A DNA stretch of 64,000 bases from a virus: the IMG/VR virus record IMGVR_UViG_3300045988_183361. One strand, 5' to 3'. The position numbers and the translations under genes are program-made. The notes below the pieces were generated by a model that was not told the DNA's origin, searched no databases, and saw only the letters and a list, made by a program, of their open reading frames with translations. Shown here piece after piece: positions 56,589-60,738 of this stretch. The stretch's first letter is position 1. Each line of letters starts with the position of its first letter.

Positions 56589-57722
56589 TTACATAATTTT
56601 ATTTTTGCCTGTTCTTTTAGCTTTATATAAATTTTTATCTGCTGCATCAAATAAATCATGAACGGTATTATTTTTTTTATATTCTGTTATTCCTCCAGAG
56701 AAAGTAAATTGCTGCGGAATATTCTCATATTTAATATTGTTGAATTTAATTCTGATATCGTTAATTATATTATACGCCTCAGTATATTCATAATCTGCAA
56801 ATAATATTCCGAATTCTTCACCTCCATATCTGGCGACAAAAATATTTGATTGGTTAATATTTTGAAGTTCCTTAGCTAAATTAATTAAAACAGTATTTCC
56901 AAATTCATGTCCATATGTATCGTTAACTGATTTAAAATCATCTATATCTATTATACAAAAATAAAGTTTTTTCTTATATGATATCCATTTCTTTGTTGTA
57001 TTAAAAAGAGACCTATAATTATCTAATCGAGTTAATCCATCTTGTGAAATTTCTTTTAATAATTGCGCATTTCTATTTTCAGATAAAACCAGTTTAAGTT
57101 CTTTTTCTTTCTCATATTTAATAACAAGTCTCGAATAAATATATGCAAATATTGTTATGATACATGATAAAAACATATATATTAAATAATTTGATGGTAA
57201 CTTATTTAATTCAGAGATTGATGATAATGAAATTGTAATAATTTCAAATTGACTTATCAAAAATAATTGCCAATTAACCTTGTTACTACCATATACAATA
57301 CACATAAAAATTGGGCAGGCTATTAATGTATATAATACCGGATAATTATAATGAATGATAATTGAAACCACTATAATTAAAGTTAAAATATACAAAGGCA
57401 TGGCTTCATATATTTCTGGTATAATATTATCTTGATATTTTCTTATGATTTGTCTACCGGTAAACCATATTATTAAATTAGATGTAGTAGGTGTAAATAC
57501 ATTCAATATAATATAAGATAATATATTTATTGTTTGTTTTTCTATTATTATATGTATTGGTATAAATAATAATTCAAAAACAAATATTGTGATTATTATA
57601 AGAAGGTTAATAGCCATTATTTTATTTTGAAATTTATTATACAAATATGCGTATAAACTGGTTTGTTTTTCTGTATGCTCTATTGTATTATCTTGTATTT
57701 TAATTTTTTCTATTGTTTTCAT
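56589..57722 (-). CDS. membrane-anchored GGDEF diguanylate cyclase
   Basis: 5-6 TM N-terminus; RYGGEEFGILF active-site motif. Confidence 0.8.
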   Translation of the reverse strand: MKTIEKIKIQDNTIEHTEKQTSLYAYLYNKFQNKIMAINLLIIITIFVFELLFIPIHIIIEKQTINILSYIILNVFTPTTSNLIIWFTGRQIIRKYQDNIIPEIYEAMPLYILTLIIVVSIIIHYNYPVLYTLIACPIFMCIVYGSNKVNWQLFLISQFEIITISLSSISELNKLPSNYLIYMFLSCIITIFAYIYSRLVIKYEKEKELKLVLSENRNAQLLKEISQDGLTRLDNYRSLFNTTKKWISYKKKLYFCIIDIDDFKSVNDTYGHEFGNTVLINLAKELQNINQSNIFVARYGGEEFGILFADYEYTEAYNIINDIRIKFNNIKYENIPQQFTFSGGITEYKKNNTVHDLFDAADKNLYKAKRTGKNKIM

Positions 57723-57862
57723 AATAATATTTATTAATCACTGAATCCCTTATCTTCAGATAAGGGAAGAAGCAATTCTCCTTTCTGCCATATTGCATCT
57801 TTTTGTTTCTAATATATGAGCATTTTACAAAGTTATTATCATTTTTTTTATTAAATCTAACA

Positions 57863-59077
57863 TTACTCTGTTGCATCATAAAATTCTTTCTCTGGATACA
57901 ATTCGTTTAAATTTTCTGCTAAATCTATTTCTTCAAGTAAAGCATTATAATTCATTTTAATTTTTTCAGATTTAATTAAACTTAACATAGCATCTGCAAT
58001 TACAGGATCAAATTGAGTACCTTTACCCTTTTCAAGCTCATTAACTACAATTATTGAATCTAAATGTTTCCTATATACTCTGTCACTTGTCATTGCGTCA
58101 AAGGCATCTGCTACAGAAATAATTCTTGCAATATAAGGTATTTGTTCTCCCTTTAAGCCATCTGGGTATCCTTTTCCGTCATATCTTTCATGATGATATT
58201 TTGCTCCTAAATCAATGTCCTTAAGCATTGACATATCTTTTAAGATATTTCCGCCTATTACTGTGTGGTTCTTCATTACTTGGTACTCTTCATTTGTTAA
58301 TTTTCCTGGTTTGTTTAATATGCTATCCGGAATTCCTAGTTTTCCTATATCATGCAATAGTGCTATTGAATGAATATCTTCAATCTCATTTTTATTCATT
58401 CCTAATTTATATGCTAATAAGGCTGTATAATCTGCTACTCTGGTTGAATGGCCTTTGGTGTAATTATCTCTGGCATCGATAATATTTGCTATAGTTGTAA
58501 CTGTTTGGAGAGACATTTTATTAATTTGTTCTATTTGATTTATTATTGTTTGTGTATTTTGCAAATTTAGGTCTGTATTTCTTTTATAAAACTTTGAAAC
58601 AATATATGCTGCTGCAAAGCATAAAATAATTATTGCAAGTTGAATCTCCATGTCTTTGCCACCTGATTTATCAATTTTATTATATGTCTTAATAAATATT
58701 GCTGTAATATTCAACACTGTCGAAAATAACCCGGTTACTATAATTAAAGTTGGATCATAATATAAAATTAAAAGCAGGATAATTGGGAATATATAAGTAA
58801 AACATAAAACAGTATTTCCTGTAAATAAGGTAAATGTATACATTATTAAAAACGAGAATGTTACAAAATATTTTAAAAATAGCCAGTTTTTATTATAAAT
58901 AAAAACCAACCACCCTGTTAAATTCGGGATACTAATTAATATAGCAAATATTGCAAAATATGGTGGTGATATAGCATGTTTTAACATTTCACCAAAATAA
59001 ATGCCTAATAGTGTTATTGTTATTACTGACCAACCACATAAAAGTGATGTATTTAATCTTTCTTGTTCTCTATCCAT
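57863..59077 (-). CDS. membrane-anchored HD-GYP c-di-GMP phosphodiesterase
   Basis: multi-TM N-terminus; LHDIGK (HD) and HHERYDGKGYP (GYP) motifs. Confidence 0.8.
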   Translation of the reverse strand: MDREQERLNTSLLCGWSVITITLLGIYFGEMLKHAISPPYFAIFAILISIPNLTGWLVFIYNKNWLFLKYFVTFSFLIMYTFTLFTGNTVLCFTYIFPIILLLILYYDPTLIIVTGLFSTVLNITAIFIKTYNKIDKSGGKDMEIQLAIIILCFAAAYIVSKFYKRNTDLNLQNTQTIINQIEQINKMSLQTVTTIANIIDARDNYTKGHSTRVADYTALLAYKLGMNKNEIEDIHSIALLHDIGKLGIPDSILNKPGKLTNEEYQVMKNHTVIGGNILKDMSMLKDIDLGAKYHHERYDGKGYPDGLKGEQIPYIARIISVADAFDAMTSDRVYRKHLDSIIVVNELEKGKGTQFDPVIADAMLSLIKSEKIKMNYNALLEEIDLAENLNELYPEKEFYDATE

Positions 59078-59117
59078 AGGTCCTCCTTATAGTCAAAAAA
59101 AGTTATATTAATATATA

Positions 59118-59131
59118 TATGACAGATAATA
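59118..59131 (-). promoter_or_regulatory. CTGTCATATAT box for the HD-GYP gene (probably also GGDEF)
   Basis: 40 nt upstream of ATG 59077, SD AAGGAGG; no box between HD-GYP and GGDEF. Confidence 0.5.
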
Positions 59132-59295
59132 TTAAAAAAAGAGTTCAACGTGACTAAGTAAGATCATGCTTACCGTTACCGCTGAACCCTTTTTATAAAA
59201 AATATAATTAGCTCCTTTATTTTTAGCTAATAATAATATGACAGAATTAAAATAAATAAAGCGTAGAATAATTAATTCTACGCTTTACACAATCA

Positions 59296-59439
59296 TTATT
59301 TATTAATTTTTTTCTGATGTAAATTATTTATAAAAGTGATTGCCTCAGGAGGCAATGGAGAAAATCTATATACTTTTTTCATTTCTTCTTCGCAGCATAT
59401 ACCTGCTCGTTTTAATTCATATATATTTTTCTTTTTCAT
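59296..59439 (-). CDS. small hypothetical protein (about 47 aa)
   Basis: own translation MKKKNIYELKRAGICCEEEMKK...; SD GGAGGAAATTTT; followed by a terminator and a TGTCATAT box. Confidence 0.3.
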   Translation of the reverse strand: MKKKNIYELKRAGICCEEEMKKVYRFSPLPPEAITFINNLHQKKINK

Positions 59440-59451
59440 AAAATTTCCTCC

Positions 59452-60738
59452 TTACTGAGCTGCTGTAAATTCAACAAAATATTCTATAGTACTTTGCTGA
59501 TCCTGATATACAATAATTTCATCATTACATAAACTATGGCCCGCATGAGCAAAAGTACAATGAGCGCCAGGACATCTCTGTTGTAAAACATTATAAGTTA
59601 AATCACTTTCAGCAGATGTTACATCATATGTTTTACCAGTAGCCACTTTGAAAATGCCTAAATATCCAATTGCTTCACTACCATGAGTCCAATAAGAACC
59701 GGAGCTTGAAGTATATCCCATCGATTTTTTTGCCTTATTAGCAAAATATGTACCTAATCCAAACATCTTTCCATTAGTTACAACTCCAACTGGATTTATT
59801 GTTAAACCATTAGTTATAATGGACCAGAAGTTTTCTGATCTTGAACCATGAAATAAATGAGATATTCCATTATTTTCATCACTTAAATTTTCTTTAGCAC
59901 AATATTCATTGAAAGCCTTTTCGGTCTTTTTATTAATGATTCTCCAAGCATTTTTATATTGCTTTGCATTTTCTCCCATAAGCTTCTTGATTTTAGTCTC
60001 TTCTTCGTCAGATACAGGTCTCCATTCAAGTCCATAGGCCTGAAGAACCGTTGGCATAGTGTCATATTTAGCTAAATTACTATTAGATCTTACCTGAGAA
60101 TACACAATATCAAACAGTTCCTGCTCTTTGTCAATGATATCAACAAATTCAATCTTTCTTTTAGCCAAATGTTTAGATAAATTATCCATTCTTCTAGGAA
60201 TTGCAGCATATAATACTTTTAATTTATTATTAAACTCTGCAATTGACATAGAATCATGGTTCTTAGCTAATTCAGTCAAAATCGAATTACCATATTCAAG
60301 CATTTCATCTGAAATATCTTCAACTGAAGTTGAATAATTATCTGAAATAACCTTATTAGCGTATGAAAGCAGCTTTGTTATAATAGAATCAACAGAGAAA
60401 ATTCCAGTCTGTGCATATGTGCCGCCATTAAAACTCAAACCTTTTTTTGTAATCTTTTTTTTCTCCATTTTTTGAGTCTTTGTAAGCAACCAACCTCTAT
60501 TTACCTTAGACAAATAAAAAGAATCCCAATTAGTCATAGGAAGTGAATATGTCCTTGGCCTGTTCCTTCCTATCCTGATTCCAATTCTACCTTCAGTAAC
60601 ATCAAAAACATTCTTATTATTGGCATTAACCTGCATAATAATCTGTTGGTTATTACCTTTACCTGTAGCTGTTTCTGCAACATAATTAAGTTCCAAATAT
60701 TCATGATTTGGTATTGTATTTATATCTGCCTGTTTCAT
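59452..60738 (-). CDS. PARP-like ADP-ribosyltransferase (WGR-like + helical + catalytic H-G-S / Y / E)
   Basis: LFHGSRSENFWSIITNGL, GLGTYFANKAKKSMGY, NDEIIVYQ match PARP catalytic-domain motifs. Confidence 0.6.
   Translation of the reverse strand: MKQADINTIPNHEYLELNYVAETATGKGNNQQIIMQVNANNKNVFDVTEGRIGIRIGRNRPRTYSLPMTNWDSFYLSKVNRGWLLTKTQKMEKKKITKKGLSFNGGTYAQTGIFSVDSIITKLLSYANKVISDNYSTSVEDISDEMLEYGNSILTELAKNHDSMSIAEFNNKLKVLYAAIPRRMDNLSKHLAKRKIEFVDIIDKEQELFDIVYSQVRSNSNLAKYDTMPTVLQAYGLEWRPVSDEEETKIKKLMGENAKQYKNAWRIINKKTEKAFNEYCAKENLSDENNGISHLFHGSRSENFWSIITNGLTINPVGVVTNGKMFGLGTYFANKAKKSMGYTSSSGSYWTHGSEAIGYLGIFKVATGKTYDVTSAESDLTYNVLQQRCPGAHCTFAHAGHSLCNDEIIVYQDQQSTIEYFVEFTAAQ

Follow-up and report, generated by a model that had tools for sequence, protein, structure and literature searches.

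A membrane-anchored HD-GYP and GGDEF gene pair beside a WGR-PARP homologue on a very large mobile element from gut metagenomes

We analyzed a 64,000-nucleotide stretch of DNA catalogued as viral (IMG/VR record IMGVR_UViG_3300045988_183361; hereafter the window), in which an initial annotation made from the sequence alone had located a GGDEF cyclase, an HD-GYP phosphodiesterase and a PARP-like protein. Positions 56589 to 60738 indeed hold three minus-strand open reading frames (ORFs) encoding a GGDEF protein, an HD-GYP protein and a PARP homologue, all of which belong to well-known families. These genes rather probably represent two independent units on a giant plasmid-like element of the gut, namely an operon that would supply both a source and a sink of the second messenger cyclic di-GMP (c-di-GMP), and a WGR-PARP that would serve the maintenance or repair of the replicon. 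The evidence comes from the conserved catalytic residues of the three proteins, from the purifying selection acting on their genes, from the arrangement of putative promoters and terminators, and from the gene order in related elements.

Catalytic features and conservation of the three proteins

The HD-GYP protein matches the Pfam family HD_5 (PF13487, E = 5.5e-39, 134.1 bits for a cut-off of 27.2) and is composed of a conserved N-terminal module of six transmembrane (TM) segments followed by an HD-GYP domain spanning approximately residues 190–365. The intact HD...HHERYDGKGYP signature announced by the initial annotation is present and nearly fully conserved among 25 homologues: H210, H242-D243, K246, H271, H295-H296-E297, G303-Y304, D324, D327 and R333/Y335/R336 are invariant in these full-length sequences, and P305, the proline of GYP, is nearly so. 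The closest sequences in the PDB, V-cGAP3 (5z7c, E = 6e-41), which acts on cyclic GMP-AMP (cGAMP), and PmGH (4mcw, E = 2e-40), which acts on c-di-GMP, match equally well and therefore do not discriminate between the two substrates. The nucleobase motif R333-V-Y-R336, invariant in the family, has the Rxx(K/R) form associated with guanine recognition and the c-di-GMP type, as opposed to RxxQ/N, which marks the cGAMP-selective type (bioRxiv 10.1101/600031; the motif is also given in PMC4159591). The eighth ligand, which in PmGH (E185) binds the third iron of a trinuclear centre, is not conserved. Tyr206 is aligned at this position, which places the protein in the Tyr/Phe (non-E185) subfamily of PMC4159591, and its metal centre is presumably binuclear. 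The protein thus shares HD, HHExxDGxGYP, D...D and RxxR with PmGH (4MCW), V-cGAP3 (5Z7C) and PA4781 (4R8Z), to which it aligns with E-values of 1e-28 to 1e-41, and differs from them by the replacement of E185 with Tyr, by an uncharacterised conserved six-TM module in place of GAF or REC at the N-terminus, and by not being of the RxxQ/N cGAMP-specific type. The six-helix module has no Pfam family match and contains invariant intramembrane polar or aromatic residues (N9, W16, Y27, E30, Y40, Y80, T86, Y95, Y106, N123 and E144), which is what one expects of a membrane-embedded sensor.

The GGDEF protein matches PF00990 (E = 6.8e-33, 114.2 bits for a cut-off of 23.8) and TIGR00254 (104.8 bits for a cut-off of 37.4) and consists of a six-TM N-terminal module, a coiled linker and a GGDEF domain at about residues 226–376. 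Both signalling proteins therefore display approximately six hydrophobic N-terminal segments, in line with the five to six sensor-like TM segments initially described. This second module likewise has no match to a Pfam family. When the two proteins were compared by hhalign for a possible shared sensor domain, the full profiles aligned over 183 columns (84% probability, E = 8e-6), and the TM regions alone gave a score of 23.4 (E = 0.005, 7% probability), only modestly above a reversed control (16.3) and 20 shuffled controls (≤17.8). The fusions of HD-GYP and GGDEF domains of about 700 amino acids (aa) found among the HD-GYP homologues were considered as a Rosetta stone and discarded: their GGDEF domains are only 28–29% identical to that of the window and they lack its TM module, and consequently they do not constitute orthologous evidence.

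The active-site residues of the GGDEF protein were read from alignments to PDB cyclases and to 24 homologues. RYGGEEF, described as intact in the initial annotation, is present, and both this motif and the Mg2+-binding DIDDF (PleD D327) are invariant in 25 sequences; the guanine-contacting Asn (PleD N335) is kept as N267 and the C-terminal K...GKN residues are intact. At the position of PleD D344, an Asp reading the Watson-Crick face of guanine (PMC7288161), the protein has Asn276, in the sequence GHEFGN. Asn is found at this position in 33 of the 118 closest clusters (90% identity) and, among 140 representatives (50% identity), in 46 of the 147 motif matches that were scored, and the two residues alternate among six-TM GGDEF relatives whose motifs are otherwise identical. 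We read Asn276 as a tolerated or specialised variant of an active enzyme, which from its motifs would make c-di-GMP out of GTP. The allosteric I-site RxxD, an optional feature located five residues before GG(D/E)EF and singled out for inspection by the initial annotation, is absent from the protein, which has QSNI there, and is also missing across the clade; feedback inhibition by the product is thus not expected. In architecture, size, GGEEF motif, Mg2+-binding DxD and guanine-contacting Asn, the protein resembles the membrane-anchored GGDEF cyclases (multiple TM segments plus GGDEF) of Firmicutes, the nearest named full-length NCBIfam model being staphylococcal GdpS, which aligns over residues 115–377. 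It departs from them by the Asp to Asn change, by the absence of RxxD, by a TM module without a Pfam family, and by being encoded on a giant extrachromosomal element and not on a chromosome. The closest chromosomal homologue examined (35% identity) adjoins a gene for flagellin, and the same contig encodes a SCIFF/radical-SAM pair typical of Clostridia.

The PARP-like region held up in profile searches (PF00644, E = 1e-18, 68 bits for a cut-off of 26.7), and the catalytic motifs noted from the letters could be placed on human PARP1: H297-G-S, Y331, K338-S339, Y342 and E407 align to H862, Y896, K903-S904, Y907 and E988. The H-Y-E triad (H297, Y331, E407) and K338-S339...Y342 are invariant in 33 homologues sharing 48–84% identity. 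The protein can be divided into a WGR-like domain (approximately residues 10–90), a helical domain (114–222) and an ART domain (237–425). The WGR-like N-terminus, also proposed initially, is supported by the family profile, of which positions 26–372 align in a single stretch to the WGR-CAT fragment of human PARP1 (E = 1e-19), pairing EGRVG with WGRVG, LFHGS with LWHGS, GTYFA with GIYFA and NDEVIVY with YNEYIVY. No Pfam match to the WGR domain or to PARP_reg was obtained with this protein. An AlphaFold (AF2) model (pLDDT 86, pTM 0.79) found its best structural matches in PARP1 and PARP2 WGR-CAT chains bound to DNA breaks (4dqy_C and 7aeo_A, about 480 columns), and its helices 114–222 align to the PARP1 helical domain. 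The family comprises 1629 clusters at E ≤ 1e-5, the best 120 of which are full-length, and more distant PARP/WGR relatives occur on megaplasmids of Butyrivibrio, Bacillus, Paenibacillus, Vibrio and Variovorax and in large (141–595 kb) phage genomes.

The WGR-helical-ART organization and the H-Y-E triad are shared with the PARPs of Herpetosiphon aurantiacus and Clostridioides difficile CD160 and with a Clostridiales clade of "WGR + PARP_cat" proteins, in which, likewise, Pfam sees the catalytic domain alone and the model shows a helical domain (PMC5966428, PMC8120803). Only the Herpetosiphon enzyme, one of two characterised bacterial PARPs, was shown to need DNA. The present protein differs from bacterial PARPs in that the W/Y of its WGR motif is Glu or Asp and in that no partner is encoded nearby: the PARG or macrodomain proteins that the initial annotation had suggested looking for did not turn up, since neither PARG/DUF2263 nor a macrodomain nor ARH was detected among the window ORFs scanned or among the annotated neighbours of seven related loci. 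It belongs moreover to a metagenomic family of more than 1600 members on mobile elements and is about 17–20% identical to PARP1. By analogy with PARP1-3 and the two characterised bacterial enzymes, it is most likely an ADP-ribosyltransferase that uses NAD+ and responds to DNA ends or nicks.

Distinct synonymous and non-synonymous changes were counted in nine or ten naturally occurring copies that share 98–99% nucleotide identity. We found 7 synonymous and no non-synonymous changes in the PARP gene (pN/pS of 0, 9 variants), 39 and 3 in the HD-GYP gene (about 0.02), 17 and 7 in the GGDEF gene (about 0.10), and 30 and 23 in the gene of the adjoining class A penicillin-binding protein (PBP; about 0.18). 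All four genes are under purifying selection. It is to be noted that synonymous variation per site is about six times higher in the HD-GYP gene (39 changes over 249 sites) than in the PARP gene (7 over 261), which hints at recombination or at a different history of these adjacent genes.

Predicted transcription units and gene order in related elements

The locus is transcribed from right to left, in the order orf66, PARP, orf47, HD-GYP, GGDEF and class A PBP (Table 1). The PARP gene is thus located upstream of both c-di-GMP genes and does not follow them, contrary to the initial annotation. A promoter-like box, TCTGTCATAT, recurs over the whole window (57 matches with at most one mismatch for 9.6 expected), and when its last base is relaxed to A or T, 26 copies lie on the coding strand, most of them followed by a start codon at a distance of 35–50 nucleotides (nt) and usually preceded immediately by a hairpin and T-run. 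A sigma-70 family protein is encoded in the same window (6082–7110), alongside this element-wide box. Taken together, boxes and terminator-like hairpins predict three units, orf66-PARP-orf47, HD-GYP-GGDEF and PBP1A. The proposal that HD-GYP and GGDEF are co-transcribed from a box near 59118 agrees with this pattern, as boxes are present at 59117 and 59236 and missing between the two genes, and the pair is bounded on either side by terminator-like hairpins. The PARP gene is set apart from the pair by a 14-bp hairpin with a T-run (59288–59256) and by separate boxes. The two small ORFs that accompany it recur in relatives: orf66 is 47% identical to the ORF found upstream of the PARP orthologue on contig L099 and has no match in Pfam, PHROG or PADLOC, and orf47 is predicted as a gene on each of the six carrier contigs described below, a visibly similar 46-aa ORF occupying the same position on L099. 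The PBP scores 476 bits against the NCBIfam model PBP_1a_fam, under its cut-off of 508.75 bits. Upstream of both HD-GYP and PBP1A the boxes are in tandem, 110–210 nt apart, and the intervening stretches (59127–59245 and 56354–56571, minus strand) end in a hairpin and T-run. These intervals, which have no match in Rfam, may correspond to short leader transcripts or small RNAs.

Table 1. Genes and candidate regulatory features of the locus, in the direction of transcription, with further copies of the box in the window
Feature	Position	Strand	Remarks
Promoter-like box variant TCTGACATAT	60992–61001	-	Departs from the element-wide box by one mismatch; orf66 starts 37 nt downstream (60955)
orf66	60755–60955	-	Small conserved ORF directly upstream of PARP, 17-nt gap
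PARP homologue	59452–60738	-	428 aa
orf47	59296–59439	-	Small conserved ORF of 47 aa just downstream of PARP
Terminator-like hairpin	59256–59288	-	14 pairs and T-run; predicted end of the PARP unit
Box TCTGTCATAT	59236–59245	-	First of two upstream of HD-GYP
Box TCTGTCATAT	59117–59126	-	Box named by the initial annotation; 49 nt upstream of the HD-GYP start, followed by AAGGAGG and ATG at 59077
HD-GYP protein	57863–59077	-	404 aa
HD-GYP/GGDEF spacer	57723–57862	-	140 nt; one 8-bp hairpin (CCCTTATC/GATAAGGG) without T-run; no box, no terminator
GGDEF protein	56589–57722	-	377 aa
Box TCTGTCATAT	56562–56571	-	Second copy upstream of PBP1A
Terminator-like hairpin	56363–56391	-	12 pairs (6 GC) and T-run; predicted end of the HD-GYP-GGDEF unit
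Box TCTGTCATAT	56344–56353	-	43 nt upstream of the PBP1A start
Class A PBP	53977–56310	-	Transglycosylase and transpeptidase (PF00912 and PF00905), one N-terminal TM segment
Box TCTGTCATAT	4836–4845	-	Further example
Box TCTGTCATAT	8462–8471	-	Further example
Box TCTGTCATAT	20571–20580	-	Further example
Box TCTGTCATAT	31010–31019	-	Further example
Box TCTGTCATAT	48713–48722	-	Further example

Related loci carrying more divergent copies of these genes were then compared with the window. Contig L011 encodes orthologues of GGDEF (56% aa identity), HD-GYP (59%), PBP (62%) and PARP (78%) in the order HD-GYP, GGDEF (overlapping by 11 nt), PBP, three small ORFs, a 216-aa ORF and PARP, the last being 1.7 kb beyond PBP. 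L106 has the same succession of HD-GYP (58%), GGDEF (56%, 4-nt overlap) and PBP (63%), with no PARP within 13 kb. On L099, the PARP orthologue (77%) retains the VirD4-NERD-Mob_Pre-...-orf-PARP-small ORF context and is followed by other genes. In the regions L100 2050–8590 and L101 5120–11293, PARP (65% and 58%) is found 1–2 kb downstream of an orthologue of the 973-aa UvrD-like helicase of the window (28056–30977), to which these helicases are 69% and 52% identical. Downstream of PARP on L100 come a hairpin with a T-run, a variant of the box and then a soluble HD-GYP paralogue (36% identity, no TM module, intact motifs). Finally, PARP proteins of about 50% identity occur in unrelated mobile-element contexts on L007 and L009. 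Within the sequence available, no HD-GYP-GGDEF pair was found around PARP on L099 (about 2.5 kb downstream before the contig end), L101, L007 or L009. The conserved module is thus HD-GYP-GGDEF(-PBP1A), and PARP is its neighbour by synteny and not by operon. The functional trio pictured at the outset finds no support here, because a terminator-like hairpin and boxes part PARP from the pair and because PARP orthologues mostly reside elsewhere in related elements; a joint c-di-GMP/PARP function is unsupported.

The carrier element and its probable host

In a public assembly collection, 1769 indexed blocks contain the exact PARP protein, which means that these genes reside on one of the most frequent large mobile elements among the metagenome assemblies searched. 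Six carrier contigs of 235–451 kb were fetched, all from metagenome assemblies and at least some of them labelled human gut, on which genes for a VirD4/TraG coupling protein, a NERD protein and a Mob_Pre relaxase are found 3–9 kb upstream of the locus. The window has a GC content of about 28% (range 0.23–0.37), with nearly all genes on one strand; its products include a split DnaE, RecA, RecJ, two UvrD-like helicases, a primase-like protein, a flotillin, a sigma-70 factor and methyltransferases. Neither the window ORFs that were scanned nor the flanking genes, as annotated in advance, yielded a capsid, portal, terminase or tail family; the 10 kb beyond the window start, in which virion genes were looked for, hold small hypothetical ORFs only, and a search for DNA-level relatives among deposited phages returned a single 293-bp match of 67% identity. 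The coupling protein and relaxase genes beside the locus and the lack of any phage structural gene in this material speak against the "phage-like element" of the initial annotation, and we lean towards a plasmid-like carrier.

That the carrier could instead be a huge phage, whose genes would act during infection to take over the host, appears unlikely to us, although several features call for weighing it. A 95-kb fragment is listed in IMG/VR; nearly all genes are on one strand, DnaE is split by HNH endonucleases and the element-specific promoter box is dense; a sigma factor, RecA, RecJ, a primase-like protein and helicases are encoded by the element itself; and PARP homologues are known from jumbo phages. 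Besides the mobilization genes and the missing structural genes, what tells against a phage is a gene content resembling that of the plasmid-like Inocles (PMC12340149). These elements of hundreds of kb have a GC content of 24–32% and encode Pol III alpha, RecJ, a sigma factor, VirD4, insertion sequences (IS) and a bifunctional transglycosylase/PBP, all of which are shared here, and the traits by which they were delimited (245–395 kb, GC 24–32%, VirD4, bifunctional PBP; PMC12340149) were all found. Inocles are oral and linked to Streptococcus (PMC12340149), whereas the present element comes from gut metagenomes and its IS points to Lachnospiraceae. No GGDEF, HD-GYP or PARP genes are mentioned in the Inocle paper (PMC12340149). 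The InoC marker (about 454 aa, PF13814 replication-relaxation) had no match among the ORFs scanned in the window, which represents about one sixth of the element. The Hodor conjugative megaplasmids were also considered as relatives and rejected on account of their GC content of about 45–47% (PMC12934698), as compared to about 28% here.

The IS in question is an IS200/IS605 insertion at 62383–64000 (TnpB at 62487–63782 and a TnpA fragment) with a GC content of 0.37, which is absent from six contigs otherwise 98–99% identical. Copies sharing 97.5–97.9% nucleotide identity with it are found in other contexts in four genomes or metagenome-assembled genomes labelled Eubacterium sp. CAG:248, Agathobacter, Lachnobacterium and Clostridium sp. 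Such near-identical copies point indirectly to a host among the Lachnospiraceae, which is probably where the element resides.

Several other features of the window concern the element at large. DnaE (DNA polymerase III alpha) is distributed over three minus-strand ORFs several kb apart (8546–10231, 15781–16539 and 17429–19270), between which lie an HNH/NUMOD4 endonuclease (16702–17220), a 5'-3' exonuclease and other genes. At 2327–3878 (minus strand), a HEARO/omega RNA (3665–3878, 109.8 bits) directly upstream of an RRXRR + HNH ORF (2327–3586) constitutes an IscB-type OMEGA element. The only large plus-strand gene, at 21965–23314, resembles TnpB weakly (OrfB_IS605, E = 1e-3). A plus-strand box of its own is present at 21908, and the GC skew is locally reversed at this gene. 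Further membrane-directed functions are encoded by two CAAX/Rce1-like membrane protease ORFs (7522–8433 and 27006–27890, minus strand) and by the flotillin/SPFH gene (31203–32777). A few kb downstream of the PBP gene, the minus strand encodes a Lar-like restriction-alleviation ORF (50874–51233, E = 1.8e-6) and an ORF with a weak match to a CdiA-CT RNase A-like domain (52848–53597, E = 4.6e-5).

Proposed roles and alternative interpretations

The HD-GYP-GGDEF operon would produce two membrane-anchored enzymes that respectively degrade and make c-di-GMP, each gated by its six-helix module. As no I-site is present, the output of the cyclase would be set by the membrane input and by the co-expressed phosphodiesterase. 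The element would in this way add its own controllable source and sink to the c-di-GMP pool of the host and could shift host motility, adhesion and cell-envelope behaviour in its favour, for instance towards surface association and mating. A role at the host surface fits the PBP1A that the element encodes next to the pair and the many surface proteins of its relatives. Manipulation of host second-messenger signalling, one of the two functions put forward initially, is thus the most likely role of the pair. The PARP would sense DNA ends or nicks through its WGR domain, ADP-ribosylate itself or proteins of DNA metabolism, and serve the maintenance or repair of a very large replicon; such a DNA role agrees with the finding of PARP more than once near a UvrD-like helicase and with its presence on very large replicons. 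A guanylate kinase-like ORF is also present in the window (24932–25495, minus strand; PF00625, E = 2e-14) and could recycle GMP, a possible product of HD-GYP hydrolysis.

Several observations weigh against these assignments. No c-di-GMP receptor was found in the window, neither a PilZ domain nor a GEMM riboswitch (searches for c-di-GMP riboswitches or other RNA motifs near the genes returned none, either at gathering thresholds in the whole window or at E ≤ 1 in 53500–62500), so that the output would have to act on receptors of the host. The product of the cyclase is uncertain, because Asn replaces the guanine-binding Asp reported to be essential in canonical cyclases (PMC7288161). Promoters and terminators are pattern matches only; a generic sigma-70 scan, which found 63 sites for 72 expected in shuffled sequences and hence no enrichment, was left out of the evidence. 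No obvious Shine-Dalgarno sequence precedes the GGDEF start codon, and a 140-nt spacer parts the two genes of the pair in this element. A neighbourhood of PARP and HD-GYP recurs on L100 with a different, soluble HD-GYP protein, so that a link between the two is conceivable. Lastly, IMG/VR lists a 95-kb piece of the element as viral, and the choice between plasmid and huge phage is not settled.

The second function put forward initially, a role in defence or anti-defence, could take the form of a kit protecting the incoming element, in which the HD-GYP protein destroys immune cyclic dinucleotides of the host, such as the 3'3'-cGAMP made by cyclic-oligonucleotide-based anti-phage signalling systems (CBASS), and PARP ADP-ribosylates defence factors of the host or interferes with NAD+. 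The best PDB sequence match of the HD-GYP protein is the cGAMP phosphodiesterase V-cGAP3, the locus is a few kb from the relaxase and coupling-protein genes, PARP homologues are found elsewhere among accessory-type genes of conjugative elements (DUF3846/YodL, LPD1, DUF3849, Bro-N), and the Lar-like restriction-alleviation gene is 6 kb away. We nevertheless hold this scenario to be improbable, since V-cGAP3 and PmGH scores are essentially equal, the motif is RxxR and not the cGAMP-selective RxxQ/N (bioRxiv 10.1101/600031), and the HD-GYP protein is membrane-anchored and apparently co-transcribed with a cyclase, their ORFs overlapping in relatives. Furthermore, none of the PADLOC-DB v2 families matched the three proteins or five neighbours, and the PARP has a DNA-sensing WGR architecture that is not toxin-like.

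The Asn at the guanine-reading position raises the question of the nucleotide made. If the Asn-variant GGDEF protein produced cGAMP, cyclic di-AMP (c-di-AMP) or a mixture, the pair would be a non-canonical signalling module. The amide side chain of Asn can pair with adenine or guanine. The residue is conserved through a deep clade, and an Asp to Ser change at the same position (GacA S348) converts cyclases into the Hypr cGAMP synthases (PMC6456294). On the other hand, the alternation of Asn and Asp in close homologues suggests that the two residues are functionally interchangeable, the protein has GGEEF where natural Hypr enzymes have exclusively GGDE[F/Y] (PMC6456294), and the partner phosphodiesterase has the guanine-type RxxR. 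We thus give little credence to a non-canonical product. Assignment to the Hypr class itself was rejected, as this class combines Ser or Thr at the D344 position with GGDE[F/Y] (PMC6456294) and the present protein has Asn and GGEEF. That Asn marks a large uncharacterised clade of clostridial six-TM GGDEF proteins whose purine specificity is relaxed or altered, with cGAMP, c-di-AMP or a mixture as the outcome, seems to us equally doubtful.

Very improbable, finally, is a single system in which PARP would, for instance, sense DNA damage or DNA entry and feed a c-di-GMP output: the three genes are contained in 4.2 kb here, PARP is no more than 5 kb away from the pair on L011 and directly precedes another HD-GYP gene on L100, but a terminator-like hairpin and a box intervene between PARP and HD-GYP both here and on L100, the L100 HD-GYP protein is a different paralogue, and PARP and pair occur without each other on L106 (within 13 kb) on the one hand and on L099, L101, L007 and L009 (in the sequence available) on the other.

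Two independent units, a c-di-GMP source and sink and a WGR-PARP, remain our preferred reading, and the first of them has a precedent. Integrative and conjugative elements of the SXT/R391 family carry the diguanylate cyclases DgcK and DgcL, which alter the biofilm and motility behaviour of the host. A conjugative element bringing its own c-di-GMP enzyme is the point in common; unlike in SXT/R391, here a cyclase and a phosphodiesterase would be joined in one operon, membrane-gated, syntenic with PBP1A and harboured by a Gram-positive host. The novelty is modest and twofold: a giant and very common gut element carries a conserved HD-GYP-GGDEF-PBP1A module, whose genes are still unannotated, and an Asn variant is widespread at the specificity position of the cyclase. 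Current concepts are left unchanged by these findings. Were an altered specificity of the cyclase to be true, a common gut element would inject a non-canonical cyclic dinucleotide signal into its host, coupled to its own PBP1A and surface-protein programme. The PARP extends the pattern of WGR-PARP enzymes that travel with very large replicons, and a membrane-gated source and sink of c-di-GMP beside a class A PBP suggests that such elements may reprogramme the surface behaviour of their hosts, which would be relevant to colonisation and to conjugative spread.

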